64,000 nt of DNA from an uncultured archaeon (GCA_963782915.1 CAWALK010000023.1:32001-96000), one strand, 5' to 3'. Shown: positions 13,940 through 63,884, counted from the stretch's first letter. Notes: generated by a model from the letters alone, not told the origin. Program-made: numbers and translations.

Positions 13940-14147
13940 AGCTTTTACGATGATGTGTGCGGCGGCAATATTTAAAACAATCCAATAAAGGCACTTCTGA
14001 GGCAGTGGAGGGGTAAGTGAAAGTGAACCTGCTCACTTTGACTTTTGTAAATCCTTTTGCATTTGATTCTTCAGTTTCCGAATATACAAGATTAACATTT
14101 GGAAAAGCTTATATTAAGTTACAATCAAAACACAGAGCCAGTAATCG

Positions 14148-14696
14148 GTGACTACGATGAATAAAAAAATGATTTATATTGTTGTTGCGGTCATTGTCGT
14201 CGTTCTTGTTGTCGGCGTTGCAGGCGTAATGTTGTTAAGTAATAATGGAAACAATGGAAACACAAACCCAACCCCCACACCACCACCAGCCACTCCAGTC
14301 GTCACAAGCTTCAACTCTACAGTTCAGTGTTAACGAAACCGTCACTGCCACAAGCGATGTAGTAGCATATCAATATTCATGCAAAAACTTCAATACTTCA
14401 ACCGAAGTGGTTCGTGTAGACATGAACCTTGGCGCAGCTGGCAACTTCAGCTATATAGTCGATAGCAGTGCACAAAAATCCTGGGTTTCTATGGATAACG
14501 GTGCCACTTGGACTGCTAGTGTCTTCGCTGATGACAACACAAACTATGAGCCCCATTCCATGCATTCGTCAACAAAATAGTTGCAAACGGTGATTCAGCA
14601 GTTGACTACACATACACAACCGGCACCACATCCGTCAGTATCTACTGCATTGCAGTCAACCCAACAATCGCTGATTCAGTTTTCGCAACTAGCTAA
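14148..14696 (+). CDS. N-terminally anchored secreted protein, possibly LolA-like fold; split by two frameshifts
   Basis: TM anchor plus Asn/Pro/Thr linker (14148-14333), beta-rich domain (14245-14580), third frame ending VNPTIADSVFATS* at 14696. Confidence 0.6.
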
Positions 14697-14785
14697 ATTT
14701 ACCGCACAAATGTTGGTTCCTAACCAACCTATTCCCTTTTTTTAGGTTCAACTTAAAAAAAAGTTTGTTTATACCCTACTAGAAG

Positions 14786-15642
14786 TTACTCAGAAACTGA
14801 ATGTTCAAGTCTTTGTGCATCTTTGACTTCATAAATAATGCTCCCACCCGTCTTCATATTAATCTGATCAATCTCCTGAATCATACGGTTAACCATCCTG
14901 CCCACCACCAAAACAAACACGTTTAACCCCCTTGACGCGGCAATGGCGGCTGAACGGCTGATCCCAAACTCAATATCTGCTTCCTGACCCAACTTACTCA
15001 GCACTGCTCTGCCAACTGCACCCATGACGCCGATGCGGTCAGGCTTAAACTCATCATAGATCGCTTTCACTTTAGCCATATCGGTTGCTTGAGAGCCGCC
15101 TTTGCGTATGCTGGGCAACTTTACGATGAGGATTTTTCCTTGTTTAACCTTCATTTTGCCATGTAAGATCTTTTAGACCTAAGTCTTCGCCTGTTTGGGC
15201 GTCGGTAAGTGCAGTGCCTTTAGCTTGGGTTAGTGGGCTGTCTGTGGGAACGGTGTACATGACGCCTTCTTTCATGATTAAACCCACTTCTTGTCCCGCT
15301 TTGACTGGTTGGGTGGCTATTGCTGGCCATGCATGCTCGATTTTTAGGTCGTGTTTGACTTCGTTAACATAGTTTTCTAAGGTTGCGTATGTCCTCTTTT
15401 AGTTTGGTTATTCCTTTTGCGTGTTAGGTGGTAGTCGGCTCGTTCACTGCCTGCTTCTAGGAGGCCTTCTTTGGTGAGGCTTTTGAAGTATTTGGAGATG
15501 GCTTGGATGGTTATGCCTAGTTTTGTCGCTGATGTCTTTTTGTTTGACGTGGGGTTGGTTTCGCATGACTTCGAGTAGGATTTGGAATTTGGTGAATTCG
15601 CCTTTGTCTTTTAGCAGTAGGGTTCGGTTGTTGCTTCGCCAA
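14786..15642 (-). CDS. Archaeal wHTH/MarR-like transcriptional regulator (COG1497-like), multiply frameshifted
   Basis: Joined frames read KDKGEFTKFQILLEVMRNQPHVKQKDI...LGITIQAISKYFKSL.KEGLL...WPAIA..PVKAGQEVGLIMKEG...; only the C-terminal part is in the ORF track. Confidence 0.7.
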
Positions 15643-15658
15643 TGAAATCAACCTGACG

Positions 15659-15686
15659 TTAACTTTAGTTAAACGAAAGTTTATAA
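15659..15686 (+). promoter_or_regulatory. Palindrome TTAACT-TT-AGTTAA abutting the BRE/TATA of cbiM
   Basis: Perfect inverted repeat 15659-15672 followed by cgaaag-tttataa, between the divergent regulator and cbiM. Confidence 0.5.
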
Positions 15687-15728
15687 GGTTTCAGCTGGAT
15701 TAACCCCGAAAAGAGAGGGCAAAATCAT

Positions 15729-17523: not shown

Positions 17524-18382
17524 ATGTTGTTTGACATACAAAACTTAACCCACGAATACTCCGACGGCACACTCGCCTTAGACAATGTCTCCGTGGGTTT
17601 CAAACGCTCAGAACGCATTGCACTATTAGGAACCAACGGCTCAGGCAAAACCACCCTGCTAAACCACTTAAACGGCATCCTAAAACCCACCTCAGGCCGA
17701 ATCCTATTCGACGGAAACCCACTCAAATACGATGCCAAATCCCTCTTAGAACTCCGCAAACGAGTCGGCTTCGTTTTTCAGGACCCAAACGACCAACTCT
17801 TTGCCCCCACCGTCAAACAGGATGTAGCGTTTGGGCCACTGAACTTGGGGTATAGCACAGAGAAAGTCAAAGTTATCGTGGAAGAGGCACTTGCCATTGT
17901 AGGTATGTCTGGATTTCGGGGACAAACCGCCACATTTTATGAGTTTGGGACAGAAGAAGCGTGTGGCACTTGCGGGTGTGCTTGCCATGGAGCCTGAAGT
18001 TATTATCATGGATGAACCCACCTCAAACTTGGACCCAAGAGCCACAAGCGACATCTTGCATTTGCTGTTGCAGTTAAACAAAGAAAAAGGCATAACGCTG
18101 CTTCTTGCAACGCATGATGTAGACATGGTTCCGCTTTTCGCTACAGAAATGTATGTGCTCAACAAGGGTAAACTGGTTTCACAGGGTACACCTAAAGAGT
18201 CTTTCTCCAACGGTGACCTCATACGGAAAGTCAATCTGCGTTCGCCAAGAATAACGCACCTTTTTGAAGTGCTGAAAACTGAGGATAAGTTGCCGATTGC
18301 GGATGAGTTGCCCTTGACGATTAGTGAAGCTAGAAAAGAAATAATCAGACTTTTAAATACTAAAACCTCCGATAAACAGTAA
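17524..18382 (+). CDS. cbiO: ECF cobalt transporter ATPase CbiO (frameshift near 17920)
   Basis: GTNGSGKT, VFQDPNDQLF; second frame SLGQKKRVALAG, IMDEPT, ATHD. Confidence 0.9.
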
Positions 18383-20391: not shown

Positions 20392-21156
20392 CTATTCTTC
20401 GCCTTTACGGAACCCCGTGGTGAATTTGGGGTCGTAGAGTTTAGATAAATCGTAAGCTTGAGGGTCTAAGACTTTGCCCACGAATATCAATGCTGTTTCT
20501 GTGATGTTTGCAGCTTTAACTTTTTCTACTATATCGGCGAGTGTGCCTTTGACGATTTTTTGTTCGGGCCAGGTTGCTTTGTAGACGACTTGGCAGGGTG
20601 TGGTTTTTGGGTAGCCGCCTTTTTGGAGTTCGTCGATTACTTTGATGATGTGTGGTGTGCCTAGGAAGATGACCATGGTTGCTTGGTGGGCTGCGAGTTT
20701 TCGGATGCTTTCTGCTTCTGGGACTGGTGTGCGTCCTTCGGGGCGTGTGATGATTACGGTTTGTGAGATGTTTGGTAGGGTTAATTCTCTGTTGAGTGCT
20801 GCGGCGCCGCCAAGTAAGCAGCTGATGCCTGGGATACGGAAGTATTCTATGCCTTCTTTGTCAAGAGCAGTCATTACTTCTTGTATTGCGCCGTAGAAGC
20901 TTGGGTCACCATCATGTAGGCGACAGACGAGTTTGTCTGCTTTAACGCCTGCTATCATGACTTTGAGCATTTCGGGGAGCCCCATTTTGGCGCTGTCATG
21001 GAGTTCGACGCCTTTTTTGCAGTATTTTAGGTATTCGGGGTTTAGGAGGCTGCCTGCGTAGATGACTACGTCGGATTGCTCAAGCCATTTCTTGCCTTTT
21101 AGGGTGATGAGTTCTGGGTCGCCTGGACCTGCACCAATAAACACTACTTTATTCAT
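20392..21156 (-). CDS. cbiF: Cobalt-precorrin-4 C11-methyltransferase
   Basis: GAGPGDPELIT, YAGSL, ELTLPNISQTVIITR, SKLYDPKF. Confidence 0.95.
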   Translation of the reverse strand: MNKVVFIGAGPGDPELITLKGKKWLEQSDVVIYAGSLLNPEYLKYCKKGVELHDSAKMGLPEMLKVMIAGVKADKLVCRLHDGDPSFYGAIQEVMTALDKEGIEYFRIPGISCLLGGAAALNRELTLPNISQTVIITRPEGRTPVPEAESIRKLAAHQATMVIFLGTPHIIKVIDELQKGGYPKTTPCQVVYKATWPEQKIVKGTLADIVEKVKAANITETALIFVGKVLDPQAYDLSKLYDPKFTTGFRKGEE

Positions 21157-21929
21157 GTTTACAGCTACATCCGTTTCCGTTTTGTTTCCAGTGAATAGGA
21201 ACTTGGCTTTTTTTGACGATGGCTACTGAGAAGTAGTCTTCGCTTACATCCCATTTGGATACGTCGCCGAGTTTGCCGACCATAACTTTCTCTTCGGGTA
21301 GGGTGCAGCGTTTGACTAATGCGACGGTTGAGTTTTCAGTGAAGCCTGAGCGGAGTAGGATTGGGATGAATTCTTTGATGTGATAGGCGCATTTCATGAA
21401 GACCAAGTTGTCTGCGTGTTTGGCTGCGTCTTCGATGTGTGCTAAGTCGAGGTCTGATGGGATGATTGTGACGACTTCTTCTTTTTCTGCCAATGGGAAT
21501 TTGGAGCTTGCTGCAACCGCAGTTACTGAGGTTACGCCTGGAATGATTTCGAGTTCGATTTCGGGGTAGGTTTCTTTTATGCATTCATAGAGGTACAGAA
21601 AAGTGCTGTACAGCATGGGGTCGCCCAATGTGATGAATGCGACGTCTGCCTTTTTTGGCTTTGGCGGCGACTATGGCGGCGCTTTCTACCCAGAGTTTGC
21701 GGTTGTTTAATTCGTCTTTGGTCATGGGGAAGACGAGTTCTAGGATTTCGGCTGGTTTTTTGCGTTCATCCAGAATCCCCCTAACCATGCTTAATGCCAT
21801 GCTTGGTTTTTTAGCATGAGATTTAGGAACACAAATAACATCCACTGTTTTAAGTGCTTTCGCAGCTTTTAGTGTGAGAAGTTCTGGGTCGCCTGGACCA
21901 ACGCCGATGCCTATGAATACGCCAACCAA
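21149..21929 (-). CDS. cbiL: Cobalt-precorrin-2 C20-methyltransferase (frameshift near 21650)
   Basis: GVGPGDPELLTLKA, FPMTKD; second frame GDPMLYSTF, IPGVTS, VFMK. Confidence 0.9.
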
Positions 21930-36724: not shown

Positions 36725-36868
36725 TTAGTATCTTCTTGGTGGACGTCTTTTTGCGTAGCACTCGCGGCAATATACTGGTCTTGTGCCGTCTGGTTTGAAA
36801 GGAACATCGCATTCTTTTCCACAGTCAGCGCAAGTTGCCTTGTGCATTTCTCGGTTACCGTATGACAT
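36725..36868 (-). CDS. CxxC-x17-CxxC zinc-ribbon microprotein (47 aa)
   Basis: Not in ORF track; MSYGNREMHKATCADCGKECDVPFKPDGTRPVYCRECYAKRRPPRRY; AGGAG RBS upstream. Confidence 0.92.
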   Translation of the reverse strand: MSYGNREMHKATCADCGKECDVPFKPDGTRPVYCRECYAKRRPPRRY

Positions 36869-37173: not shown

Positions 37174-37818
37174 TTGAGACAGAAAAAATCGACCTTGGGC
37201 GAACATCTCGCTCTCCTATCAGTCAAATACAGTGTCTACCCAAACGAAGTTTTCCAAGCACTAGTAATAGCCCGCAAAAACGATCGTGCCACCTGCGGTA
37301 ACCTCTCAATCGAATACCGCGGCAAACTAAAAGGCGAAACAATCTTTCTAATAACCAAAGACAACGACGTAGTTGCACAATTCCGCGTCGAAGAAGAATT
37401 TCTGCTGCGAAAAGACAACCCATTCGAAAGCTGGATGAGCACGGACAAGATTAAAAAGAAAATTGCAAAACAAAATACTGACTCCGTTTATATCCAAATT
37501 AAAGACCTCAGAGCAGGTATGAAACGGGTTAATCTTAAAGCGGAAGTTCAAGAGATCCCCAAACCAGCGCAGGTCCATACTCAATTCGGCAACACAGTGA
37601 TGGTAGTTAACGCTTTAGTCGGTGACGAAACAGGCAAAGTTAAGCTCTGCCTTTGGGAAGGGCAAATCGGCCAAATTAACGTGGGCGACCAAATTGAACT
37701 CAGGAATGGGCAAGTCTGCGTTTTCCGAGGCGAAAAACAGCTGAGACTGGGCAAGAATGGCTCGTTAACTGTGTTGAAACGGGCTGAGGTTAAACCGCAA
37801 ATCGCAACAATAGGCTAA
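37174..37818 (+). CDS. OB-fold ssDNA-binding (RPA/SSB-like) domain with unknown N-terminal domain
   Basis: IKDLRAGMKRVNL, VGDETGKVKLCLW, QLRLGKNG. Confidence 0.82.
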   Translation: MRQKKSTLGEHLALLSVKYSVYPNEVFQALVIARKNDRATCGNLSIEYRGKLKGETIFLITKDNDVVAQFRVEEEFLLRKDNPFESWMSTDKIKKKIAKQNTDSVYIQIKDLRAGMKRVNLKAEVQEIPKPAQVHTQFGNTVMVVNALVGDETGKVKLCLWEGQIGQINVGDQIELRNGQVCVFRGEKQLRLGKNGSLTVLKRAEVKPQIATIG

Positions 37819-37849: not shown

Positions 37850-37902
37850 CTTGACTAACTCTTTCAGTCTAGGTCAAGATTCCTATACAAAAAATCTTAA
37901 AT
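37850..37902 (+). repeat. Array junction element copy 1 (CTTGAC-N17-GTCAAG-attCCTATACAA-TATA)
   Basis: Same arms and CTATACAA tail as copies 2, 3 and 5, longer spacer. Confidence 0.65.
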
Positions 37903-37935
37903 TACCCAATACTTCGCTTTTAATTAGGTGCTAAT

Positions 37936-39324
37936 ATGCGCAAGCTTGTTTATGCCTCATTTTCTGCGGTCCTACTTCTGGCGTATTTAATGTCAGTGGG
38001 TTCTGCCTCTACCGTTTTTACTCCAGTTAGCGGCTTACTCACATCTGACACAACTTGGAGTCTAGCAAACAGTCCCTACCAATTAACAGGACCAGTCGGC
38101 GTAGCCAGTGGAGTAACATTAACTATCCAGCCCGGCGTAACCGTTGATCTGGCAAGTTTAGATATTCAAATAAATGGAACCCTAATCGCCAGAGGAACCA
38201 GCGACCAAAAAATCACTTTCAATAGCAACAGCCAAGACGCCGATATCGGTATAGCGGCAAACAGCACAAGCTGGGATGAATTAACCGGCACAGGATGCAT
38301 AATTCGAAACGCCATCATCAACGCTAATTTGGGCATCGGAAAAGTAGCGCCCAAAATCGACAGCAACACCATCACTGGACACTACCTGCTAACTTCGGGG
38401 TCCCCAATCATCTCTAACAACATTATCAACGAAGAAATTCATGTTTTAGACGGAACACCCCTCATAACCGGTAACACTATAAACAGTTTTATCGTTGGGA
38501 GCTGCAAGGGGCCAGTGACAATATCAAACAACATTATTACTGGTCACTTCGGTGATGCAATTAACGGTGCAGGCATCAGTTGCAGTGCAAACAACATCAT
38601 TACAGGTAATACTATCACCCACTTCAAGAAAGGCATCGTTTTGTTCTGTGGAAACAGCACAATAGAACGAAATGTAATCGTAGACAATACCCTCGGAATA
38701 CAGTTGGGACTATCCGGCTCAGGCACCAACGGCGTCTTCCAAGTAACCATCCGAAACAACCTGATAACCGATAACTCCAAGGGAATAAGCCTCACCGACC
38801 TATCGCAGACCCTCGCTGCGGGTGGCAGCATAGCCTTCACAATAAAAAACAACAATATCCAAGGCAACCGCGACTACGACATCTACTTGGGAATCAACAC
38901 ACCGATAAATGCCTCTTATAATTGGTGGGGTACAGCTGACCAGCAAGCCATAAACCAGACAATCTACGATGTCAAAAACAACTACAATCTCGGCACTGTA
39001 ACCTTCACTCCATACTTGACTGAACTTGATCCAGTTACACCCATCTATAATGGGCAGACACAAACCACTACCCCAACCGCAAGTACAACACCGGTGCCGA
39101 TCATTACCGAAACAGAGAACCCCACTGAGCCGCCGGCCACAACAACTCAAGACCCAGCCACGACGAATCCAACCCAGCATCCGGAGCAGCAGCCAATCAC
39201 CCAAAACAATCAGCAACTCACGCTAGGCTGGTCAGAAGTTGCAGTACTCATTGTATGCGTTGTTGTTGGGACTTTAACTGTGGCGCTGATATTACTCCGC
39301 CGAAAGCACATAACACAACAATAA
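37936..39324 (+). CDS. Right-handed beta-helix surface protein with C-terminal TM anchor
   Basis: Signal peptide, SDTTW..SPY, I.GN.I repeats, NWWGT, Thr/Pro linker, TM plus RRKH. Confidence 0.88.
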   Translation: MRKLVYASFSAVLLLAYLMSVGSASTVFTPVSGLLTSDTTWSLANSPYQLTGPVGVASGVTLTIQPGVTVDLASLDIQINGTLIARGTSDQKITFNSNSQDADIGIAANSTSWDELTGTGCIIRNAIINANLGIGKVAPKIDSNTITGHYLLTSGSPIISNNIINEEIHVLDGTPLITGNTINSFIVGSCKGPVTISNNIITGHFGDAINGAGISCSANNIITGNTITHFKKGIVLFCGNSTIERNVIVDNTLGIQLGLSGSGTNGVFQVTIRNNLITDNSKGISLTDLSQTLAAGGSIAFTIKNNNIQGNRDYDIYLGINTPINASYNWWGTADQQAINQTIYDVKNNYNLGTVTFTPYLTELDPVTPIYNGQTQTTTPTASTTPVPIITETENPTEPPATTTQDPATTNPTQHPEQQPITQNNQQLTLGWSEVAVLIVCVVVGTLTVALILLRRKHITQQ

Positions 39325-39396
39325 TGAGAACTATCCACACTAAGTGGTGGCACACTCTGAGTAAATACCAGTTGCAACGTTTGTTTGTTTAGAATC

Positions 39397-39440
39397 CTTG
39401 ACAAGCCTTAGTCAAGAAACCTATACAAGAACGCTTTAAT
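39397..39440 (+). repeat. Array junction element copy 2
   Basis: CTTGAC aagcctta GTCAAG aaacctatacaagaacgctttaat. Confidence 0.8.
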
Positions 39441-39464
39441 GCTCAGCTTAATTTAGTATGAATT

Positions 39465-40364
39465 ATGAACTCGCTAAGAAAGTGTATTTCATTAGTGCTT
39501 ATTCTAACTATGGTAACTTCAAGCTTATTCTTCAGCGAATTAACGGTTGCGGCATCTAAACCTTCCACGCCTCAGGTTACAATCAAATTTGTCAATGCAA
39601 CCTATCCCCTACCTACAACGGACCCATACACTGGACAAACAAGCACAATCTTGGGCGGAAATTATTCCATTGAAGTTACAATAAAGAACCAAGCCACAAG
39701 CGATTCAAATAGCAAAATTTACTACAATATCCGTTTAAAACCCTACTTTGATAATAACTCTTGGGCTGAACTTTATGGTGTATTGTATTACGTAAGTGAA
39801 AATAATGGGGACAGCACTTTCGATTATGCCTATTTCATAAACTCATATGCCCCCGCTCAATCAACATCAAGCGTTACAAAGATTATTATCCCTCTGGAAG
39901 AAACAACCGTTTATGGAAAAACAGGCACCAGCTATTATATACCGACGTATTATAATTACACTAGCCTTGTCCCTGAAGGCGGACAAGTTGATTTTCAGGT
40001 ACAAGCATTAACAGGACATGCAACTCAGAGGTGGGTTTCCAGAAGCCCATTTACCACCACTGTTGGCGGATATAATGTGGATGCAGTGGCGTTTGACGCT
40101 GCAAGCGATTGGAGCAGTACCCAAACAATAACAATCGCTGATGGCTCCGATTCAACTTATACACCCCCCGAAGACGTGACAACTTTAACCCCAATAATAA
40201 CTTCAACGCCAACTGTAACTAACACAAACTTGAATCCATCCGATTTAATTACGTTACCTTTGAGTATCTTTATCGCAATCATAATAGTGGTTGTGCTGCT
40301 TACAGTTACTCTATCAGTATTGCTTTTTAGAAGGCATCGAAAAACCATTAACTTGAGCAAATAG
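39465..40364 (+). CDS. Secreted anchored protein, array family member 1
   Basis: Signal peptide, KPSTP..T, DPYTG, IKNQ, YYNIR.K, VDFQVQA, SDWSSTQTITI, TM plus RHRK. Confidence 0.85.
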   Translation: MNSLRKCISLVLILTMVTSSLFFSELTVAASKPSTPQVTIKFVNATYPLPTTDPYTGQTSTILGGNYSIEVTIKNQATSDSNSKIYYNIRLKPYFDNNSWAELYGVLYYVSENNGDSTFDYAYFINSYAPAQSTSSVTKIIIPLEETTVYGKTGTSYYIPTYYNYTSLVPEGGQVDFQVQALTGHATQRWVSRSPFTTTVGGYNVDAVAFDAASDWSSTQTITIADGSDSTYTPPEDVTTLTPIITSTPTVTNTNLNPSDLITLPLSIFIAIIIVVVLLTVTLSVLLFRRHRKTINLSK

Positions 40365-40461
40365 ACCTTTTCCCACGCTTGGGTGTACTCGCCCTCTCTA
40401 CCTATGGGTCAAGAAATATTGACTTGGCTTAGTTCAATATTCTATACAAGAACGCTTTTAT
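40332..40461 (+). repeat. Array junction element copy 3 (gene 3' end to next TATA)
   Basis: aggcatcgaaaaac...aaatagaccttttccc...gggtgtac...GTCAAG aaat ATTGAC ttggctta GTTCAAT attctatacaagaacgcttttat. Confidence 0.8.
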
Positions 40462-40486
40462 CGCCTCTATAACGCTAATACTAAAC

Positions 40487-41221
40487 ATGGGCAAAATCAG
40501 CAAGACTCTCGCATTATTCCTAACTCTAATAATCGCTACGTCATGCCTAACCTTACTGATGGTTAACTCTGCAAATGCCCAAACAATACCTAAACCATCT
40601 GTACCAGAGTTCACTATAAAAGTAGTACACCATTCAGTAGACCAACCAGCAATTTATTCAATAGACCCCTATACTGGAGAAAACAAGACGGTTGTTGAAG
40701 CAAAGCATGACGTATGGACAAGTGTAGTAGTAACAATCATGAATCAGCACTTCATACCCTATGCTGATGCGGAGGGGAATACAATTAATCTGTATTATAA
40801 TGTGCGCTCAAAAGGGTCTTTTTCAGAGAATTGGGTTGAGCTTGAGAACATTAATTATGGCTTCCCAACTCCAAGTCAAATTCCGTCCCCTCCAAGCGAA
40901 GATTATCTAGAGTTAGATTACACTGCAAACTACTCGTCTAATGCACAACTTGATTTTCAAGTACAGGCAATGATAGGCTTTATCCATGATATTGAAAATC
41001 CGTATGGTGGAATGGATAATCGGTATTACCCTGTTTTTACTGGTGAATCGAGCGGTTGGAGCAACACACAAACAATAACCATAGGACAATCCTCAACTTT
41101 ACCATCTCCATCGCCTACCGTTCCAGAACTATCTTGGTTAGCAATCATACCGTTGATGGTTTCAATGCTCTGTCTTGCTGTGGTACTTAGGCATCGAAAA
41201 ACGTCATACTTCAACAAATAG
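40487..41221 (+). CDS. Secreted anchored protein, array family member 2 (PEL/PEF-CTERM-like)
   Basis: PKPSVPEFT, DPYTG, LYYNVRSKG, LDFQVQA, SGWSNTQTITI, VPELSWL-TM-RHRK. Confidence 0.87.
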   Translation: MGKISKTLALFLTLIIATSCLTLLMVNSANAQTIPKPSVPEFTIKVVHHSVDQPAIYSIDPYTGENKTVVEAKHDVWTSVVVTIMNQHFIPYADAEGNTINLYYNVRSKGSFSENWVELENINYGFPTPSQIPSPPSEDYLELDYTANYSSNAQLDFQVQAMIGFIHDIENPYGGMDNRYYPVFTGESSGWSNTQTITIGQSSTLPSPSPTVPELSWLAIIPLMVSMLCLAVVLRHRKTSYFNK

Positions 41222-41317
41222 ACTTTTTACAGCGATAGGGTGTACACCCACCTCCTACTTTTTGGTCAAGAAACTTGACCAAATCAAGTCAAGTGCCATT
41301 TACTGGAAGCTTTATAT
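41189..41317 (+). repeat. Array junction element copy 4
   Basis: aggcatcgaaaaac...aaatagacttttt...gggtgtac...gGTCAAG aaa CTTGAC caaatcaa GTCAAG...gctttatat. Confidence 0.8.
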
Positions 41318-41341
41318 CACAATCTTTTCATTGCCTTAAGT

Positions 41342-42578
41342 ATGCGACTTCTAAGCAAAAGCTTCCTTCTCATACTGATTTTAACAATCTTGGGGGCATC
41401 CATACTTGTTTCTATGCCTACTGGATTAGCTCAAAGTGACACAAACAAGAGTGGAATAATTAGTTCAGATACCACATGGACTAAGGCAAATAGTCCACAT
41501 AACCTTGCTGGAAATGTGCTTGTTAAGGAAGCAGTCACCTTAACTATAGAAGCAGGTGCTACCGTCAATCTCAACACCTACTATATCTTAGTCAACGGTA
41601 CACTACAAGCAAAAGGGACCAGTACTGATAAGATAGTGATAAATGGCATCGAGGGCTCTCCACCTCTAGCTCCATTGGGAAGTTCCTTAGCAATGCCCTT
41701 TACTTATGGGATTACAATCAATGGTGGCTGTACAATTGAAAACGCCATTATTAACAACGTTAGATTAGCACTTGGCAGTTCTAACAGAATTAGCAATTCA
41801 ACATTTAGTGGTTTTGTTTCTATAGGACAATCGTCAACTTTCGCGAACAATATTGCTACAGGTTTGGTTTTCGCTGGAGGAAACTCAAAAATATTAAACA
41901 ACATCGTTCACGGTGGCATTGAAACAGAATATGGGTCACCAACTATTTCTAGTAACATAATCTCTGGCGGTGGAAATGGCATCTGGTGCTATTTGTCTGA
42001 AAACGCTGTAATCACGGATAACATCATTACTGGTTGCGGTTCAGGCATTTTTGCTCAAGGTAGTAACGGTCTTATTAGTGGAAATTTCATTGCTGAAAAT
42101 ACTAATGGCATTACTGTTAACTACGGAGCTAAAGTAACAATTAAAGAAAATACAATAAAGCAAAATGAGGTTGGTATACAACTGCCCAGTTCTGCCTAGT
42201 CCAGTCATCAATTACAACAATATACAAAACAATTCTTACAGCGTTTACTTAGGGGCATCAGTTAACCTTGATGCTACCAATAATTGGTGGGGAACAACCG
42301 ATACCCAAGCAATAAATAAAACAATTTTCGACTTTAAGAATGACTTCAATTTGGGGTCGGTAACCTTCATTCCTTTCCTTTCGTCACCTAATCCCCAAGC
42401 ACCAACTGGCCCGACATTAACACCTGAACCATCAACAACTCCATCGTCTTCTGTTTCTGATAGTCCAATCCCATCTCCAACCATCCCAGAGTTATCTTGG
42501 TTGGTAATTTTGCCTTTGTTTGTTGCAATGCTCTTTATAGCGATAAAACTTAGGGGTCGGAAGGTTAGCAATGATTAG
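41342..42578 (+). CDS. Right-handed beta-helix surface protein, PEL-CTERM-like (frameshift near 42190)
   Basis: SDTTWTKANSP, I.GN.I repeats, NNWWGT, IPELSWL-TM; paralog of 37936. Confidence 0.85.
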
Positions 42579-43359
42579 AGGTAAAACGTTTTCATTGGTT
42601 CTTATCCTGATTTTAGCAATGTCACTGTTTATTATTGCACAATCCGTTTCTGCACAAACAACACCTAAACCGTCTGTTCCCAAATTTACAGTGAGATATG
42701 TCGATTATTCATATGATATTCCACCAGTATATGGAATAGACCAATACACAGGGCAGAATACCATAATCCAAGCAGGTTATCATGTAGATAATAGCAGCAT
42801 TGAATTTACAATCAAGAATCAACCCTTCCAGAGCTATAATGATACAAATGGTAATTACAATACTTTGTACTATAACTTTAGATTCAAGGGTCAGTATGGA
42901 GATAGTTGGTCTAACTATCCAGACCTTGGTCATTCGTATGGGCGTTTTTCAGGCTTGTTCCCTGATGTTTCAGCTTCAAATTCCGACTATACTGTTATTT
43001 CAATTCCACTCCTTGCCTTAACAGCTTATGCTACTAGCACTCATTCTATTCCAATGGGTGTCAAGGTAGATTTCCAAGTCCAAGCAATCATGGGATATAT
43101 CAGTTCTACCCCCACTGGAATGTTAGCTGGTGATTTTTTCAGTTTTGAAGGAAATAGAAGTGATTGGAGCAATACACAAACAGTAACTTTAGGAAACACG
43201 GCTTTGTCATCGTCAACCCCAACATCAACGGCTTCATCACCAATCCCAACTCCAACCGTTCCAGAGTTTTCATGGTTAGTAATTTTGCCTTTGTTTGCTG
43301 CAATGCTATTTTTTGCGGTAATACTTAGGCATAGAAAAATCCCTAACTTGAAGCAATGA
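42571..43359 (+). CDS. Secreted anchored protein, array family member 3 (PEF-CTERM-like)
   Basis: PKPSVPKFT, DQYTG, IKNQPF, LYYNFRFKG, VDFQVQA, SDWSNTQT, VPEFSWL-TM-RHRK. Confidence 0.87.
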   Translation: MIRGKTFSLVLILILAMSLFIIAQSVSAQTTPKPSVPKFTVRYVDYSYDIPPVYGIDQYTGQNTIIQAGYHVDNSSIEFTIKNQPFQSYNDTNGNYNTLYYNFRFKGQYGDSWSNYPDLGHSYGRFSGLFPDVSASNSDYTVISIPLLALTAYATSTHSIPMGVKVDFQVQAIMGYISSTPTGMLAGDFFSFEGNRSDWSNTQTVTLGNTALSSSTPTSTASSPIPTPTVPEFSWLVILPLFAAMLFFAVILRHRKIPNLKQ

Positions 43360-43453
43360 CCTTTTCCCACGGCTATATATGCACACCCTCTATTGTTCAG
43401 TCCATAAACCTTGACTTGGCTTAGTCAAGAAACCTATACAAGAACCCTTTAAT
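43327..43453 (+). repeat. Array junction element copy 5
   Basis: aggcatagaaaaat...aatgaccttttcccac...CTTGAC ttggctta GTCAAG aaacctatacaagaaccctttaat. Confidence 0.8.
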
Positions 43454-43470
43454 CGTCCAAAAACCACGCT

Positions 43471-44187
43471 TTGGATATGAACAAAATCGGTAAATGTTCT
43501 ATCTTGAGTTTGGCAGCACTCTTGTTGCTTCTAAGTTGTGCTTTCGAATTAGCCAGTGCATCTGTCCCTTCCGTTCCAGAATTCACAGTAGCAACTGTCG
43601 ATCATTCATATATTGTACCAGCCGCCACTGACCCCTACTCAGGGCAAATTGACCCCAGCTATATCATCCAAAATAAAACCATTGACATAACTATCAAGAA
43701 CCAACCGTTCACATCATCCTGCAAATACATTTATCTCTCTTATGCTATTCGCGAAAAAGGATACTACGAAACGGAATGGAGAAATATTTCTTCTTTTTCA
43801 AGAAATTCAAGCCCAGGCCGTTTAGCGTCGGATTCCGCGAACACTGTGGTTTCTATTCCGTTGTACAATTATCCTGATGGTGGTGGCCAGGTTGATTTCC
43901 AGGTGCAAGCGGCTATTGTGACTGCGCATCCAATTTGGGAGGGTTCCAATATGGGTTATTGGACGTTTGAAACCAGCGATTGGAGCAGCACTAAGACAGT
44001 AACAATCCCTGCATCCTCTTCGGGTTCTCCTATACCATCGAGCGCTTCATCTAATCCAACCTCAGCACCGACCCAAACCACGGCAACTCCCGAATTTAAC
44101 ATAGTAGAAATCGCGATTCTGGCGGTATTAATCATCTTGACGGTTTTAGTTGCGCTCTTGATTGTTACATTAAGGCGACGCCGATAG
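43471..44187 (+). CDS. Secreted anchored protein, array family member 4
   Basis: PSVPEFT, DPYSG, IKNQPF, VDFQVQA, SDWSSTKT, TPEF-TM-RRRR. Confidence 0.87.
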   Translation: MDMNKIGKCSILSLAALLLLLSCAFELASASVPSVPEFTVATVDHSYIVPAATDPYSGQIDPSYIIQNKTIDITIKNQPFTSSCKYIYLSYAIREKGYYETEWRNISSFSRNSSPGRLASDSANTVVSIPLYNYPDGGGQVDFQVQAAIVTAHPIWEGSNMGYWTFETSDWSSTKTVTIPASSSGSPIPSSASSNPTSAPTQTTATPEFNIVEIAILAVLIILTVLVALLIVTLRRRR

Positions 44188-44527
44188 GATATACATTCAA
44201 GCTACCTCAAAAAGGCGATTTCAATGTCTTTTTTTTGTGAGGATTGGATGCGTAGGATTTTTCCCATCCCACTGTTCGGTTGTGGGAACAGTTAGTTTTT
44301 GGTTTAGGTCGATTTCCAAGTGTGGTGGAGGGTGGAGCACTTTTTTGTCCCATCTGATACGTTGAACTATATTGGTTTGGATGCGATGAGGATGGGGATT
44401 ATACTTAGAAGAATTGTCGGCATAATTACTTCAAGATACTAACAAGCGGACCTTCTTGGGTTTTATGTCTGGGGTAGTAGTTGTCGAGTGGCTGCCCAAG
44501 ACTACTACTACTCTACTACACACACCA

Positions 44528-44575
<48 letters not shown>

Positions 44576-47121: not shown

Positions 47122-47799
47122 TTGACTCTTATCGTTGATGACGCTGGCAGCGGCGATTTACTTTTCGGCGTTGTAGTCGGCGCATACCACCAAGAAACAG
47201 GCGAATTCAAATACGACCTCATTGACGTCAGATTCTACCAAGATATCTTCCGCGAAAAAGAATATCTGCAGGAATCCTCCCGAGTTGTCGCACGTCTTGT
47301 TTCAAAGTTTAATTTGAAACCCGACGAAGCCATTCATATCTGTCAAGGCTGCATCTTTGATGTTGCTGCTGAGGAACTTTCGAAAGTCTACGGTGAAGAC
47401 CGCGTTAAGCGAATTCATGTTGAGGGCGAAACACAGCGTTTAGTCGAAATCGCATATTTAGATGAAATACGAAATTTGGGTTACGAACCGATGGCTGAGA
47501 GGGAAGAAAAAAGAGGGAAAAGCTTCTTCCACATGATGCACTGGTTAAAAGACAACCCTGAAATGCTGCGCTATGCCAAAACAGGTTGGCCCCGACTAAA
47601 GAACTATCAGATATTCAAGGACTTTCATGCAAAACAAACGTTCAGTGCAGTTTGCAGCGAATGCGGTTCCGAATGTGAGGTGCCCTTCCAACCTAAAGCC
47701 GATAAACCGGTTTTCTGCAAAAAATGCTGGACAACCCACAAACCCGCACGTCCACACTCTAATCGACCCCGAAACAACAGGAAAACAATAAAACACTAA
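47122..47799 (+). CDS. RNase H-like (RNase HII-related) protein fused to a CxxC-x17-CxxC domain
   Basis: IVDDAGSG N-terminus resembles RNase HII DEAGRG; C-terminal CSECGSECEVPFQP..DKPVFCKKC. Confidence 0.7.
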   Translation: MTLIVDDAGSGDLLFGVVVGAYHQETGEFKYDLIDVRFYQDIFREKEYLQESSRVVARLVSKFNLKPDEAIHICQGCIFDVAAEELSKVYGEDRVKRIHVEGETQRLVEIAYLDEIRNLGYEPMAEREEKRGKSFFHMMHWLKDNPEMLRYAKTGWPRLKNYQIFKDFHAKQTFSAVCSECGSECEVPFQPKADKPVFCKKCWTTHKPARPHSNRPRNNRKTIKH

Positions 47800-50583: not shown

Positions 50584-50704
50584 TGCTGCCAGCTTTCCCA
50601 GGTTCACGTGGCCTAAGACCACACTACAGCTGGGAACGGAACACGGTTTAACTTCTGAGTTCGGTATGGGATCAGGTGGAACCCGTGCCCTTTGACCGGC
50701 AAAC
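50584..50704 (-). rRNA. rrf: 5S rRNA, stand-alone
   Basis: Minus strand contains cacctgatcccataccgaactcagaagttaaac; closing helix tgccgg/ctggca; cttataag TATA about 25 bp upstream; ends approximate. Confidence 0.93.
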
Positions 50705-50972: not shown

Positions 50973-52099
50973 CAGTAGATCAAAAAATCGTGTTTCACCT
51001 CCTCTAAAAATCAACCGTAAGCCTCCAAATCAGGCAGCCAAGACAAGACTAAACACAACCTAACAGCATTCTTAAGAGCATACGTCCTAACACGCCTTCT
51101 ACGCCTGAAATTCCACAAAACCCACAAATTATAGAGTACAACCGCCAAAAAGAAATACAGCTGCCTCAACCTATAGAGCTTAGAGGTAGTCTTAGCCAAA
51201 AACAACCCAATCATACGATAAGAAGTCTCAATCCCCCAACGCCGCCTAAACGTCTTCTTAAGCACCTTGGGCTTAAACATGGTGTTGGTAGCAAAAATAA
51301 GCAGCTTCTTGTTTTGACGCACAGTTACAAGCCTAAAAGTCGCCTGATCCAAAACCGACTTCTTATGCGTAGTCGTTGTATAAAATACATCCAATCCGGC
51401 TCTTAAGGGCTCCTTATGCCAAGGAATATGCATTATGTACTTGATTTTGGCGTTATCTAGATAGTTTATCACTTGAGTGGAGAAGTAGCCTCGATCCAAC
51501 AGCACCAGCTTAACTGTTAAGCCCAACTCAGAGACACAGTCTAGGAGATACTTGACATGCCACAGCTTGCTTCTATGAATCATTGTTGCTGCTGCTAAGG
51601 TTAATCTCTGACCGTTGTAGAGAACACTTATCGTTGCATATCTGTAGGCATGGTTTGAGCCGTTCTTGTGTTGGGTTCCCACTACGCCTTTTGCTTTAGG
51701 GTCACCGTAGTACATTTCATCATGCCAGTCTATGGCTACAACCAGTGGCTTGTTTAGGGCGCCTTTTTGTTTCATTTGCTGGATTGTTTGCCGGTTGATT
51801 TGGAGTATTTGTTGAGGGTTTTGTTGTTTTAGGTGGTTTCTGACTGTTTGGCCGCAGAGTTGGAGGTTTTGTGCGCACCCTTCTATGTAGCTGTTGTCTA
51901 TTGCTGCTAGGATGAGTGTTTTGGTGGTTTCTTGGCTATTTCGGGCGTGTTTGAGATTAAGGAAGCTGCCGATTGTTTCTTTAAAATATAAGTAAGCCTT
52001 TAGCTTATCCCTTCGTCTAGGGATGGCGCTGTAGCTAGTCATGCTTGATACCCAAAAGCTGGTTACAGCGCTATTCCGATAAAAACTTTTGATCTACTG
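50973..52099 (-). mobile_element. Complete ISH3-type (IS4-related) insertion sequence
   Basis: 13-bp TIRs CAGTAGATCAAAA at both ends; ATAA direct repeat at 50969-50972 and 52100-52103; one DDE transposase. Confidence 0.9.
51011..52042 (-). CDS. DDE transposase (ISH3-like)
   Basis: AIDWHDEMYYG, LLDRGYF, RRRWGIETSYR. Confidence 0.92.
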   Translation of the reverse strand: MTSYSAIPRRRDKLKAYLYFKETIGSFLNLKHARNSQETTKTLILAAIDNSYIEGCAQNLQLCGQTVRNHLKQQNPQQILQINRQTIQQMKQKGALNKPLVVAIDWHDEMYYGDPKAKGVVGTQHKNGSNHAYRYATISVLYNGQRLTLAAATMIHRSKLWHVKYLLDCVSELGLTVKLVLLDRGYFSTQVINYLDNAKIKYIMHIPWHKEPLRAGLDVFYTTTTHKKSVLDQATFRLVTVRQNKKLLIFATNTMFKPKVLKKTFRRRWGIETSYRMIGLFLAKTTSKLYRLRQLYFFLAVVLYNLWVLWNFRRRRRVRTYALKNAVRLCLVLSWLPDLEAYG

Positions 52100-58975: not shown

Positions 58976-59237
58976 CTACTAACCGACTAAATATAAAAAC
59001 CTGAAGTGCATCCAGGCGATTGTTCTGTAGCCTTCTTCAAGAGTAGCAGCGCCAATTCCAGATACAATGGGCAGTATTTTTCCCCAAATATTTCATTTGA
59101 ACCCCGTGTTTTGTTTGTCTCCATGCGGTTCATTAATAATTTGGGCCTCTAGATGTAACATAGTAAGTAGGCGATTGGTTCTATGGGACCGTCACCCTTT
59201 AATTCCAAAACCATTTCTAGCATACCGCTCCGGTGAT

Positions 59238-60618
59238 ATGTTGTTTAAGAAAACAAAAATAGTCTGCACAGTAGGACCTGCAAGCTTCCCAAAAGAAACA
59301 ATCACAAAAATGTATCGATCAGGCATGAATGGTGTAAGAATTAACACTGCATATGGGAACATAGCGCAGTATCAGTCAACCATAGAGACCGTTCGTGAAA
59401 TAGCGGAGATCCCCATAATAATCGACCTTAAAGGACCCGAAGTTAGACTAAGAACATCAGAGTCCAAAACTATTCACACTAACGACGTTTTCGAAGTAGG
59501 CTTCAACGGAGAAGAAATCTGCTTCAACCATGACTTCTACGACAAAGTAGCAATAGACGACGTTATCCTCATCGATAACGGTAAGATCAAAACAAAAATC
59601 GTACAAAAAGGCAACCGCAAGCTATGCTTACGTGCCCTAACTGCCGGAGAAATAGAAGACGGCAAAGGCGTTAACATTCCAAATAAACACCTTTCCCTTT
59701 CAACCCTGTCTAAGAAGGACTTAGAGGTTGTACAGTTTGCAAAGAAGCACAACGTCGAATATGCTGCGCTTTCTTTTACGAGAAATGCCAAAGACATAGA
59801 AGCGCTCTCAAAAACCCACAAATTCGAAGGCGGCATAATCGCTAAAATCGAGAATAACGAAGGCGTACAAAACGCCGCAGAAATTCCTAGAAGCCGCCAC
59901 AGGTATAATGGTTGCAAGAGGCGACTTGGGAGTTGAAATTGAACCCGAAAAGGTACCCCTCATACAGAAATCGCTGATAAAACAGTGTAACCAAAGGGGC
60001 AAATTAGTGATAACCGCCACTGAAATGCTCGAATCCATGATTCACCAGCCTAGCCCAACCCGAGCTGAAGTCAGCGACGTAGCAAACGCTATCCTCGATG
60101 GCTCAGATGCAATTATGCTTTCCGGCGAAACAGCAATCGGGCAATACCCAATAGAAGCCGTTGATATGATGGCTCGCATTGCGCATGAAACCGAGGCAGC
60201 AGTCATAAGTAAAGTTGAAGGCACCCACTTCATCAATATTTCAGACACTGTCAGTAAAGCGATACAGGAAATTTGCCTAAGCATGCCCCTTAGTAAAGTG
60301 ATTACTTTGACTAAAACTGGCTACACTGCCCGCATGATTGCGCGATTCAAGATTTCGCAGCCAATTATCGCTGTTACCCCTGAGATAAAAGTGAAGAAAC
60401 AGTTAGAGTTAGTGTTTGGTGTAAAACCCGTTTTTATTGATTACTTGGGCGAAAAGGATACGATTTCTGCGGTTGCTAAGCAACTCTATGATATGCATTT
60501 AATTGAGGATAAAGAAACGGTGCTCTTCACTGCAGGTGAGCGCACGATAATGAAGCATGCTAGCAACGCGATTGAAATCCATAAGATTGAGGAATTGCGG
60601 AATTTCTTTTCCTCTTAA
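59238..60618 (+). CDS. pyk: Pyruvate kinase (frameshift near 59885)
   Basis: KTKIVCTVGPAS, DLKGPEVR, IIAKIEN; MVARGDLGVE, PTRAEVSDVANA, MLSGETA. Confidence 0.96.
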
Positions 60619-61859: not shown

Positions 61860-63884
61860 TTGATCTCATGGAAATACACGTTTAAGCGATTAAATGAAGA
61901 ATACGAAATCGCCACAAAAAAGAAGCAGGCGTTAGATAACCTCTGCGCCACTGGCAAAATTTCGCAAGCAACCCGCGACTCATTCACAACTGATATAGTA
62001 ACAGCTATTGCCGATCTTGAAAAGCAGCGCCAAGACCTCGGAGAAAAAATGCAAGTAAAAACCACCGAGCTAGAAGGACAACTAAAAACCTTGGAAATGC
62101 TTCTCGCAAACTACGAAATCCAGCATGTAGTAGGCGAAATCGACGATGAAATCTACGGAAGAGAACTAGGTCTCCTCTCAAATATCCTCGACAACACAAA
62201 AAATGAATTAGGCACAATAAAGGACGCGACCAGCCAACTTTTTCCTGCCCCAAAAGCAGTCGAAGCTCCAGTAATCGCTGAGTCAGTTGCTCCAGTTGCA
62301 CAAGCGCCAATTATCTCAACTCCTGTAGAAGTCCCGGTTGAAACTGCCACAATCCAACCCGCAATCGTGGAAACAGTGACAGCCGCAGAAACTACATCCG
62401 TTGAAACAGCGCCAATTGAAGCCGCTCCGGTTATTGAAGCGCCAGTCGAAATAGTTCAAGCTGAAGCAGCGCCAGCGGAAATTGCCGCCCCAGTAGTCGA
62501 GGCAGCCCCCATTGTTGAGGCTCCCGTAGAGACTCCTGTTGAGGCAGCACCCGTTGAAGCTGTACCAGTTGAAGTTGCAGTTGTTGAAGCCCCCATCGTT
62601 GAGGCTCCAGTTGAAGCTGCACCAGTAGAAACAGTTGCAGTTGAAACTCCAGTTGTCGAGGTAGCAGCAGTTGAGGCAGCCGTTGAAGTTGCTCCAATTG
62701 AAGCAGCTCCAATCGAAGTTGCACCAGTTGTTGAAGAAGCAGTCGTTGAGGCTCCAGTAGTAGAAGCCGCTTCAGTTGAAGAAGTAGCAGTTATTGAAGC
62801 TCCAGTAGCAGAAGCAGCAGTAGTTGAGCAAGTTATCGAAGCTCCAGTCGTCGAAGTAGCAATTGAAGCTGCACCAGTAGAAACAGTTGCAGTCGAAGCC
62901 CCAGTTGTTGAGGCTGCTGCAGTTGAGCAAGCAGTTCCAGCAGTTGAAGCAGCTGCAATTGAAGAAACACCAGTCGTTGAAGCAGCGCCAGTTGAAGTAG
63001 CAGTTGTTGAAGCCCCAATCGTTGAGGCTCCAGTCGAAGCTGCACCAGTAATTGAAGAAGCAGCAGTTGAAGTTCCAGTTGTTGAGGCAGCCCCAGTTGA
63101 GGTTCCAGTTGAAGAAGCTCCAGCAATCATTGAAGCTCCAATCATCGAAGCCCCAGTTGAAGCAGCCCCAATGGAAGTAGTAGCTGAAGCAGTCGTTGAA
63201 GCTCCAGCAGTTGAAGCATCTATAGTTGAAATTGCAGCAGTTGAAGAAACTCCAGTTATCGAAGCCGCTGCAGTTGAGGAAGTTGCAGTTGCTGAGGCTC
63301 CGGTTGAAATCGTCAGCGAAGCAGTCGTTGAAGAAGCAGTTGCAGCTGAAGCAGTAATTGAAGAATCAGTCGTTGAAATTGCAGCTCCAGTAATTGAAGA
63401 AGCCGCTCAAATCGAGCAGTCAATAGTTGAAGAAGCAACCGTTGAAGTTCCAGCTATTGAGGCACAAGTTGAGGCTCCCGTTGAAGAAGCCCCAGCAGTC
63501 CTCGAAGCCCCAATACTCGAAGCTCCCGTTGAAACCGCAACCGTCGAAGAAGCTGCAATCGTTGAAGCTCCAGTTGTTGAAGCTCAAACAGAAGAAGCAG
63601 CAACCGAAGCAGCCGCAGAACCAGAACAAGTTATTGAAGCAGCTCCACTTCAAACATTCGAAGTAACCGAGCATGCAGCAACCGAAATCACACTCGAAAA
63701 AGTCATGGAACAAGCAATAGAAGAACAAATCGTTCAGCCAGTCATCGTGGAGGAGGCCCACGTTCCGGCCCACCCTTCAGAAGCGCCCACAGCGGCGCAT
63801 TCAGAAGTGGAAGCGGAAACAGCCGACCAAACCACCGACCAAACCCCCCAAGCAGAAGAAGACGAAGAAGACACAACTGAGTAA
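61860..63884 (+). CDS. CdvA-like coiled-coil protein with very long Glu/Ala/Val/Pro repeat tail
   Basis: N-terminal ~130 aa coiled coil (KKKQALDNL..GKISQ, HVVGEIDDE.Y) resembling CdvA; VEAAP-type repeats follow. Confidence 0.75.
   Translation: MISWKYTFKRLNEEYEIATKKKQALDNLCATGKISQATRDSFTTDIVTAIADLEKQRQDLGEKMQVKTTELEGQLKTLEMLLANYEIQHVVGEIDDEIYGRELGLLSNILDNTKNELGTIKDATSQLFPAPKAVEAPVIAESVAPVAQAPIISTPVEVPVETATIQPAIVETVTAAETTSVETAPIEAAPVIEAPVEIVQAEAAPAEIAAPVVEAAPIVEAPVETPVEAAPVEAVPVEVAVVEAPIVEAPVEAAPVETVAVETPVVEVAAVEAAVEVAPIEAAPIEVAPVVEEAVVEAPVVEAASVEEVAVIEAPVAEAAVVEQVIEAPVVEVAIEAAPVETVAVEAPVVEAAAVEQAVPAVEAAAIEETPVVEAAPVEVAVVEAPIVEAPVEAAPVIEEAAVEVPVVEAAPVEVPVEEAPAIIEAPIIEAPVEAAPMEVVAEAVVEAPAVEASIVEIAAVEETPVIEAAAVEEVAVAEAPVEIVSEAVVEEAVAAEAVIEESVVEIAAPVIEEAAQIEQSIVEEATVEVPAIEAQVEAPVEEAPAVLEAPILEAPVETATVEEAAIVEAPVVEAQTEEAATEAAAEPEQVIEAAPLQTFEVTEHAATEITLEKVMEQAIEEQIVQPVIVEEAHVPAHPSEAPTAAHSEVEAETADQTTDQTPQAEEDEEDTTE

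Follow-up and report, generated by a model that had tools for sequence, protein, structure and literature searches.

In archaea, the systems nearest to the one described here are Ptr2 of Methanocaldococcus jannaschii, TFB-RF1 of Pyrococcus furiosus and the TrmBL1/Tgr sites with the TGM motif TATCAC-N5-GTGATA, as presented in PMC4158304. Their sites are palindromes at a fixed place just upstream of BRE, the element recognised by transcription factor B (TFB), and of the TATA box. In the cases given there, regulators bound upstream of BRE/TATA act as activators, and repressor sites overlap these elements or lie downstream of them (PMC4158304). The present report concerns a stretch of 64,000 nt from an uncultured archaeon (GCA_963782915.1 CAWALK010000023.1:32001-96000), referred to as a whole as the window, in which an array of surface-protein genes carries a repeated palindrome, CTTGAC-N8-GTCAAG. 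In the original prediction, made from the window alone, the palindrome was taken for the site of an integron-like or dif-module-like system of one-gene cassettes, with a co-regulated family spread by tandem duplication as the alternative. The analysis described below indicates that the palindrome is most likely the binding site of a regulator in a conserved promoter and not a recombination site. It is probably part of the promoter of a cell-envelope regulon of Bathyarchaeia.

The array consists of seven open reading frames (ORFs), which make up six co-oriented genes at 37936-44187 on the plus strand. ORF calling, Pfam searches and alignment confirmed that two unrelated folds stand side by side: two beta-helix proteins (bh1 and bh2) and four members (D1 to D4) of a family, here called the D family, which share a DFQVQA block. 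Five of the six genes are preceded by the element, D3 being the one without it. Exact copies of CTTGAC-N(4-20)-GTCAAG were counted in the 64 kb: there are four against 0.08 expected, and none of 100 shuffles reached four. They start at the positions given in the original prediction, 37850 with a spacer of 17 nt and 39397, 41274 and 43410 with spacers of 8 nt, and the variant ATTGAC-N8-GTTCAAT reported at 40418 was also found. With up to three mismatches the N8 form gives 19 matches in the window, where 26 are expected. Outside the three N8 sites, no N8 match with fewer than two mismatches exists in the 64 kb, and the sole match with two, at 39015, lies inside the bh1 coding region. The palindrome is followed in four junctions by the shared sequence CCTATACAAGAAC, without mismatch at 39420 and 43433, with one at 40441 and with two at 37882. 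A refined promoter profile run on the window gave four strong copies (E between 4e-17 and 3e-14) and a partial match at the first junction (E=2.5e-4); nothing else scored below E=0.5.

The palindrome turned out to be the centre of a larger element. In the consensus of 58 promoters, the 5' part reads (TT)AGTCAAGAAAC, one variable base, TTGAC and eight poorly conserved bases ending in T-y-A, and the 3' part continues with GTCAAGAAAC, C-TTTAC, a purine-rich G-A-g-a-A, CCTTTTATC, about 23 variable bases and T-ATG. Four half-sites of alternating orientation can be recognised, in the order GTCAAGAAAC, yTTGAC, N8, GTCAAGAAAC, yTTTAC; their centres are 11, 13 and 11 nt apart and the whole covers about 45 bp. 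They form two tandem units of about 24 nt, each consisting of GTCAAGAAAC followed by yTT(G/T)AC, which is an imperfect GTCAA-N6-TTGAC palindrome. CTTGAC-N8-GTCAAG is the central dyad, made up of the second half of unit one and the first half of unit two, and the sequence singled out earlier as CTATACAAG is the degenerate fourth half-site. The 3' end of the element abuts a purine-rich BRE-like stretch, into which the fourth half-site merges, and the TATA box (CCTTTTATC). The TATA box lies at about -30 to -24 from the ATG (centre about 27 nt before it), with A residues at about -34/-35. PMC4158304 gives -34/-33 for the adenines of the archaeal BRE and -26/-27 for TATA, counted from the transcription start. 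Because the distances measured here from the ATG resemble those from an archaeal start site, transcription is predicted from this geometry to begin at or next to the ATG, which would give a leaderless mRNA.

In the window, the TATA box of these promoters lies 24-25 nt before the ATG. The D1 promoter (39387-39440, plus strand like all the promoters of the array) has a degenerate first half-site GTTTAG at 39387-39392, CTTGAC at 39397-39402, N8, GTCAAG at 39411-39416, TATAC at 39422-39426 and the TATA box CTTTAAT at 39434-39440, before an ATG at 39465 (profile E=7e-16). The D2 promoter (40408-40462) is built from GTCAAG at 40408-40413, ATTGAC at 40418-40423, N8, GTTCAAT at 40432-40438, TATAC at 40443-40447 and TTTTATC at 40456-40462, with the ATG at 40487 (E=6e-16). 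Upstream of bh2 (41265-41318) are GTCAAG at 41265-41270, CTTGAC at 41274-41279, N8, GTCAAG at 41288-41293, TTTAC at 41299-41303 and the TATA box CTTTATATC at 41310-41318, followed by the ATG at 41342 (E=3e-14). The best score, E=4e-17, belongs to the D4 promoter (43400-43453), with a degenerate first half-site GTCCAT at 43400-43405, CTTGAC at 43410-43415, N8, GTCAAG at 43424-43429, TATAC at 43435-43439, CTTTAAT at 43447-43453 and the ATG at 43477. No Shine-Dalgarno-like run was seen in junctions J2, J3, J4 and J6. The bh1 promoter (37850-37904) is a variant. An insertion of 9 nt separates its half-sites 2 and 3, CTTGAC (37850-37855) and GTCAAG (37873-37878), which are thus 17 nt apart; further on come TATAC (37884-37888), a degenerate fourth half-site, and an A/T-rich box resembling TATA (about 37895-37904), and the TATA lies about 37 nt before the ATG. 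AGGTG at 37926-37930 suggests that the bh1 mRNA has a short leader with a Shine-Dalgarno sequence.

The element was then followed through 77 related loci (1.056 Mb) from 52 genomes, all metagenome-assembled genomes (MAGs) of Bathyarchaeia type, three of them labelled Methanocella MAG113. The source genome of the window is absent from this collection, since the best identity to D1 in it is only 41%. The 1.056 Mb contain 29 copies of TTGAC-N8-GTCAA, whereas 100 block shuffles gave 1.1 on average and never more than 4. Most of the 29 precede the ATG of the D-family gene by which the locus was gathered, at a distance of 66-68 nt. A DNA profile built from 25 seed sites gave 103 matches at E<=0.01 in loci and window together. 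A match was assigned to a gene if an ATG-started ORF of at least 80 aa began within ±25 nt of the projected start. By this rule there were 68 unique assignments, four in the window and 64 in the loci (47 to D-family genes and 17 to others); 45 of the 68 fall within ±2 nt of the projected start, and 38 assigned matches do not overlap a seed. An assignment was obtained in 38 of the 52 genomes and a match of any kind in 43, while nine had none.

The genes behind the element form a coherent set, encoding secreted envelope proteins of which most are anchored at the C-terminus. An N-terminal hydrophobic segment is predicted in 68/68 of the downstream proteins against 198/694 of the background ORFs in the loci. 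Among the 17 non-family targets in the loci, five are NosD/Beta_helix proteins (L015, L021, L038, L047, L067), and a family of N-terminally anchored proteins is also found behind the element (L005, L011, L018, L030). One locus, L030, has five copies in 6 kb, preceding or situated close to a D gene, a beta-helix fragment, an N-anchored protein, a NosD-like ORF and a Kelch-repeat ORF. The original prediction was thus right in describing one-gene units of unrelated folds that each carry their own promoter, and such tandem units recur elsewhere, since L030 has the same arrangement. In L030 (8001-8750 and 8733-8812) and L064 (8800-8860), the first half-site of the next promoter lies within the last codons and stop of the preceding gene, which makes these junctions tighter still than those of the window. 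A terminase large-subunit-like ORF, possibly a provirus remnant, lies 5 kb upstream of the five-promoter array at L030 1599-2945 (minus strand).

The arrangement of the element relative to its genes is equally regular. Fifteen loci, which extend over at least 16 kb and include 8 kb or more on either side, have exactly one D gene, with exactly one element directly before it. Three others (L039, L061, L071) contain divergent D-family pairs with a spacer of about 116 nt, in which a single symmetric copy with four perfect half-sites has a TATA box on each side. An alignment of seven divergent intergenic regions has the half-sites, both TATA boxes and the ATG as its invariant columns. The neighbourhood of these pairs is conserved housekeeping sequence, including a methionine aminopeptidase-type M24 gene and a flavin reductase gene. 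Operons of overlapping genes carry one element, as in bh2-D3 of the window and in L002, where one copy serves five genes. D3 (42571-43359) has no promoter module of its own, and its upstream region gave no profile match. It is probably co-transcribed with bh2, because its start overlaps the bh2 stop by 8 nt.

These arrangements bear on the proposal that the inverted arms and the 8-nt spacer are core sites of a tyrosine recombinase, either integron attC-like or Xer/dif-module-like, by which one-gene cassettes would be inserted, excised or shuffled. Short inverted arms around a spacer of 6-8 nt do resemble recombinase core sites, and the attC sites of integrons and the sites of Xer/dif modules likewise recur, with short arms and short spacers, between co-oriented unrelated genes. 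Array content also differs between genomes, and L018, the closest related locus, has another ectodomain behind the same promoter. A site of recombination would not explain, however, why the element keeps its distance to TATA and ATG (45/68 within ±2 nt), why it precedes solitary genes (15 loci), why divergent pairs in conserved housekeeping surroundings have one copy in common, or why it is missing where genes fuse into operons (D3; L002 with its one copy for five genes). Furthermore, window and L018 stay similar without interruption from the first half-site across the spacer region as far as about codon 10, only the spacer letters being different, so that no break of homology falls at the spacer.

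The expected enzymes were not seen either. The window has 81 ORFs of at least 110 aa; in 62 of them (the other 19 overlap longer ORFs), no integrase or resolvase domain was found by Pfam, which agrees with the statement in the original prediction that the window has no recombinase. Neither a tyrosine nor a serine recombinase domain occurs in 100 of 202 neighbour ORFs; these came from 15 of the 27 loci that have more than one D gene or element copy. The only transposases in these scans are of the DDE type, at 51011-52042 of the window and at 4980-6471 of L019. Integrons have a tyrosine-recombinase gene adjacent to the array, and none was found among the scanned ORFs of the window or of 15 other multi-gene loci. 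Their sites occur only with cassettes, which are usually promoterless, whereas here the site lies within the promoter of each gene, with a TATA box for each, and is found at solitary genes and inside divergent promoters as well. Xer/dif sites have two arms of about 11 nt around a spacer of 6-8 nt, with breakpoints in the spacer; the arms here are only 5-6 nt long. In view of the constant distance to TATA and ATG, the solitary genes and the lack of a recombinase in these scans, a cassette system of either kind is not supported, and we consider it very improbable. The original prediction had itself named a motif at constant TATA distance before unlinked solitary genes as the sign of a plain operator, and this is what the 15 loci from other species present. 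The constant position and the solitary genes support the alternative that it offered, a co-regulated family with an operator-like site.

Compared with the sites of Ptr2, TFB-RF1 and TrmBL1/Tgr, the element shares the fixed place just upstream of BRE/TATA, the occurrence in many promoters of one functional class and the conservation between species. It differs in its half-sites (GTCAA/TTGAC), of which there are four in two tandem units instead of one palindrome, and in its targets, which are envelope proteins and not metabolic genes; its lineage is also uncultured. What is expected of an upstream activating site was found here: a dyad at a fixed distance from BRE/TATA (the 58-promoter consensus and the ±2-nt agreement of 45/68), conservation between species above that of the flanking DNA (the alignment of seven regions; 38/52 genomes) and a coherent gene set (68/68 against 198/694, with several unrelated folds). 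By analogy the element appears to work like the upstream activating sites, and it fits no named regulator. A literature search for TTGAC-N8-GTCAA found nothing, and the same holds for gene regulation, cell envelope and archaeosortases of Bathyarchaeia, subscription journals being mostly outside the coverage of both searches.

It is proposed that a dimeric or tetrameric DNA-binding regulator occupies the half-sites. Since the element lies upstream of BRE/TATA, which is the position of activators in the cases given in PMC4158304, activation is the most likely mode. The regulator would then probably help to recruit the TATA-binding protein (TBP) and TFB, and would co-regulate an envelope regulon that comprises the D family, NosD-like beta-helix proteins, the N-terminally anchored family and others. 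Most genes of the array would respond through their own promoter copy, and D3 would be read through from the gene before it. A regulator that represses from the same site, or acts in both ways, would hold the envelope genes silent in the absence of a signal, or permit the expression of some of them only. Among the archaeal regulators that have been characterised, most are repressors (PMC4158304), and multiple half-sites would permit a cooperative coating that reaches the BRE; all four half-sites are nevertheless upstream of BRE/TATA, whereas the repressor sites of the same source overlap these elements or lie downstream. Repression is therefore rather unlikely, though not negligible.

Alternatively, the repeats may extend the core promoter itself, being read by a specialised TBP/TFB paralogue or acting as a UP-like strength element, so that the envelope genes would be constitutive and highly expressed. 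The element does abut BRE/TATA, its fourth half-site merges into the BRE-like stretch, it is confined to one functional gene class, and no neighbouring regulator gene was found. Four dyad half-sites about one helical turn apart are, however, typical of dimeric helix-turn-helix regulators and not of TFB/BRE contacts, and in the divergent pairs one symmetric copy serves both directions. This makes an extended core promoter unlikely, more so than repression. The TTGACA-like arm was also considered as part of a bacterial sigma-70 promoter, which was set aside on account of the archaeal nature of the organism; the window is archaeal and carries RadA, a CdvA-like gene and a large cobalamin cluster.

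Several observations weigh against the proposed activator site. The gene neighbourhoods yielded no candidate regulator, and no DNA-binding gene recurs beside the D family: an Lrp-like cluster is present in 5/77 loci and a helix-turn-helix-like one in 4/77, at variable distances. When 1717 ORFs were clustered, more than nine loci were reached only by the D family (77) and one beta-helix cluster (10), the other beta-helix cluster reaching six; a regulator or recombinase as a recurrent neighbour in more than nine of the 77 loci was thereby rejected. The element is absent from 9/52 genomes, including all three Bathycorpusculum MAGs, and stands before a D gene in only 39/77 loci. Furthermore, the bh1 promoter at 37850 fits the profile only in part, the source genome is seen only within the 64-kb window, and both the leaderless start and the sign of regulation are deduced from geometry.

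The similarity between the junctions extends over about 130 bp. As the original prediction stated, it starts inside the RHRK codons of the previous gene, in the junctions at about 40330, 41190 and 43325. The upstream part is a conserved D-family 3' end (40332-40400, and likewise 41189-41262 and 43327-43399, all on the plus strand), with the RHRK-tail codons, the stop and an oligo-T run, (A)CCTTTTCC. The same block follows solitary D genes in front of unrelated DNA in other species (L010, L011, L017, L032, L034, L046, L067), which indicates that it is the 3' end of the family itself. The junction is a composite of this 3' end and the promoter of the next gene, two modules conserved independently. 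As a terminator hairpin the 3' flank was rejected, the six flanks folding no better than shuffles (z -1.1 to +1.9); for this reason, the oligo-T run alone is likely to be the terminator signal.

Could the similarity of the junctions be without function, a by-product left when genes of the array were recently duplicated or underwent gene conversion? A quick maximum-likelihood tree (IQ-TREE, LG+G4, with SH-aLRT support only) was made from 88 of 113 D ORFs, 25 being left out because of their length (not within 200-340 aa) or their E value (above 1e-35). The four window paralogues are scattered in it: D1 is placed in the starred clade (96) with genes from eight other loci, D2 is nearest L011, D3 nearest L049, L018 and L014, and D4 nearest L043 and L002. 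The promoters of the window have similarities of 0.64-0.80 to promoters of other species against 0.53-0.62 among themselves. Where a genome has several copies, the promoter most similar to a given one belongs to that same genome in just 5/38 cases (four SPRUCE MAGs were counted under one label, and none of their rows is among the five), by which concerted evolution of promoters within genomes was rejected. Neighbouring promoters are mutually closest in L030 (8001/8814, 78%) and L019 (2229/8001, 85%), as a by-product would have it; the conservation between species, the age of the paralogues and the 3' block kept at solitary orthologues nevertheless speak so clearly for another origin that we give this explanation hardly any weight. 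As the paralogues are ungrouped and the promoters as close or closer to those of other species, the array is a cluster of old subfamilies and partner genes and not a recent tandem burst, and the likeness of the promoters is explained by constraint and not by homogenisation. Of the alternative offered in the original prediction, the co-regulated family has therefore stood, and a spread by tandem duplication, if meant as recent, has not, the paralogues being ancient and scattered in the tree.

A comparison with L018 revealed a further aspect of these conserved ends. The bh2 promoter with the first 10 or so codons is 89% identical over 107 nt to the promoter region of a D-family gene in L018. A second island covers the anchor of bh2 with its transmembrane segment together with the start and signal peptide of D3 (42507-42690 against L018 7927-8110, about 94% over about 184 nt). 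Between the two islands there is a beta-helix in the window and a D-fold in L018. The signal peptide of D3 matches that of the second L018 gene (83% at the amino acid level), whereas its ectodomain is closer to the first (56% against 41%). Ahead of the D3 ATG, the block at 42507-42690 contains the runs TTTATA and GGAAGGT, and it might hold an internal promoter or ribosome site. Across genomes, 25 gene pairs have coding sequences that are at least 72% identical in their first 81 nt; for 20 of these pairs the ectodomains are at most 51% identical, with signal-peptide DNA at 73-91%. This points to a constraint at the nucleotide level on the 5' end of the predicted leaderless mRNAs.

The L018 case may be regarded as a lead: ordinary homologous recombination may have exchanged ectodomains between the conserved ends. 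More generally, though only tentatively, the conserved ends (promoter and signal peptide at one side; anchor, stop and terminator at the other) may serve as slots for expression and anchoring, between which homologous recombination exchanges unrelated ectodomains. Multigene families of surface proteins with fixed expression and anchoring ends and variable middles are comparable in that the DNA of promoter, signal peptide and anchor is far better kept than the ectodomains. They differ from the present array, in which there is no sign of switching, phase variation or silent cassettes and every copy has a complete promoter.

All six proteins of the array have an N-terminal hydrophobic signal, a C-terminal hydrophobic stretch and a basic tail. 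The gene bh1 (37936-39324) encodes a secreted right-handed beta-helix with a C-terminal transmembrane segment and basic tail (PF13229, 2.9e-8, 33.9 bits). bh2 (41342-42578) encodes a beta-helix/NosD-like surface protein with a PEL-type anchor (PF13229, 56.2 bits; PF05048, 38.6 bits); both proteins score above the Pfam gathering score and can be classed as right-handed beta-helix/NosD-like proteins. A frameshift splits bh2 into two frames (41342-42199 and 42165-42578), whereas in L019, L007 and L038 the full-length relatives are each encoded by one ORF. Two overlapping frames are seen in three other genes of the window as well: an ABC ATPase gene (17524-18382), a tetrapyrrole methylase gene (21149-21929, minus strand) and a pyruvate kinase gene (59067-60618). 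The four may be either assembly indels or real pseudogenes.

The D family has at least 1865 clustered proteins at E<=1e-3, all of them unnamed or "hypothetical". In the array it is represented by D1 (39465-40364, a surface protein of 299 aa), D2 (40487-41221, 244 aa, with a PEL...RHRK C-terminal sorting-like signal), D3 (262 aa) and D4 (43477-44187, 236 aa from the ATG at 43477, with an alternative ORF start, TTG, at 43471), which are 36-38% identical to each other. D1-D4 gave no match in Pfam and NCBIfam, 60 members gave no consistent weak match in Pfam at E<=1, and a profile of 60 members had no sequence match in the PDB. An Atlas search with the homologue P0032 returned only Bathyarchaeota clusters named "hypothetical", and the Atlas model of P0032 has a weak resemblance to FN3/cytokine-receptor-like beta-sandwiches (TM score 0.36-0.41), which may serve as a lead only. 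The peptide P-(S/T)-V-P-E-F occurs twice in D-family proteins (D2, D3 and the family alignment), once directly behind the signal peptide and once where the C-terminal sorting-like signal begins.

The tails of D2, D3, D4 and bh2 are tripartite, with P-E-(F/L), a hydrophobic helix and a basic tail, while those of D1 and bh1 have a transmembrane helix and basic tail without the P-E-F/L motif. Archaeosortase C recognises PEF-CTERM, according to PMC5244752. Among the NCBIfam models, that of PEF-CTERM, TIGR03024, came first or nearly first with the tails of D2 and D3. As the scores of D2 (14.0 bits), D3 (13.8) and D4 (11.3) do not reach the cut-off of 23 bits, membership of these three tails is not shown; the tails of bh1, bh2 and D1 gave no match with this model. 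The array resembles the substrates of archaeosortase C in the tripartite tail of four of its six proteins and in an exosortase/archaeosortase-family protein near the L018 pair, but differs in its scores below the cut-off and in having no archaeosortase gene in the 64-kb window. The L018 protein (11082-16436, 1784 aa) is encoded 2.4 kb from the D pair. A long extracellular region carrying InlB-B-repeat-like domains is fused to its N-terminal exosortase/archaeosortase-family domain (PF09721, 8e-31; TIGR04178, 59 bits where the cut-off is 23), and the enzyme fits no named archaeosortase subtype.

The surroundings of the array are not conserved as a block. The SSB-like gene upstream of it (37174-37818) has an orthologue in L057 with no array after it, by which conserved synteny of the array was rejected, and the orthologue of a zinc-finger gene at 47122-47799 adjoins a D gene in L070. 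A 47-aa ORF with two CxxC pairs, zinc-ribbon-like, is found at 36725-36868 (minus strand); its DNA is 84% identical to L057 2027-2240, which adjoins the orthologue of the SSB-like gene. Directly downstream of the array, an intergenic (ACT)n trinucleotide microsatellite occupies 44501-44575 (about 26.7 copies, 90% matches). The DDE transposase gene of the window (minus strand) has a lone 5S rRNA gene (50584-50703, minus strand) next to it and lies 7 kb downstream of the array, and 61860-63884 encodes a protein of 674 aa with a CdvA-like coiled-coil N-terminus and an extensin-like proline-rich repeat region. No RNA family of Rfam was found in or near the array.

Bathyarchaeia are abundant and almost entirely uncultured archaea. 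If the palindrome is part of a regulator site, as seems probable, the element would be a class-wide cis-regulatory signal that marks a candidate cell-envelope regulon, including the D family, which has so far gone without annotation. It could be used as bait for finding the regulator and may provide a native promoter for future genetic tools, and the DNA upstream would allow envelope genes to be recognised in metagenomes. The analysis also removes a tempting, unsupported claim of an archaeal integron-like system. If the exchange of ectodomains between conserved slots were true as well, it would give Bathyarchaeia a combinatorial and co-regulated surface proteome.

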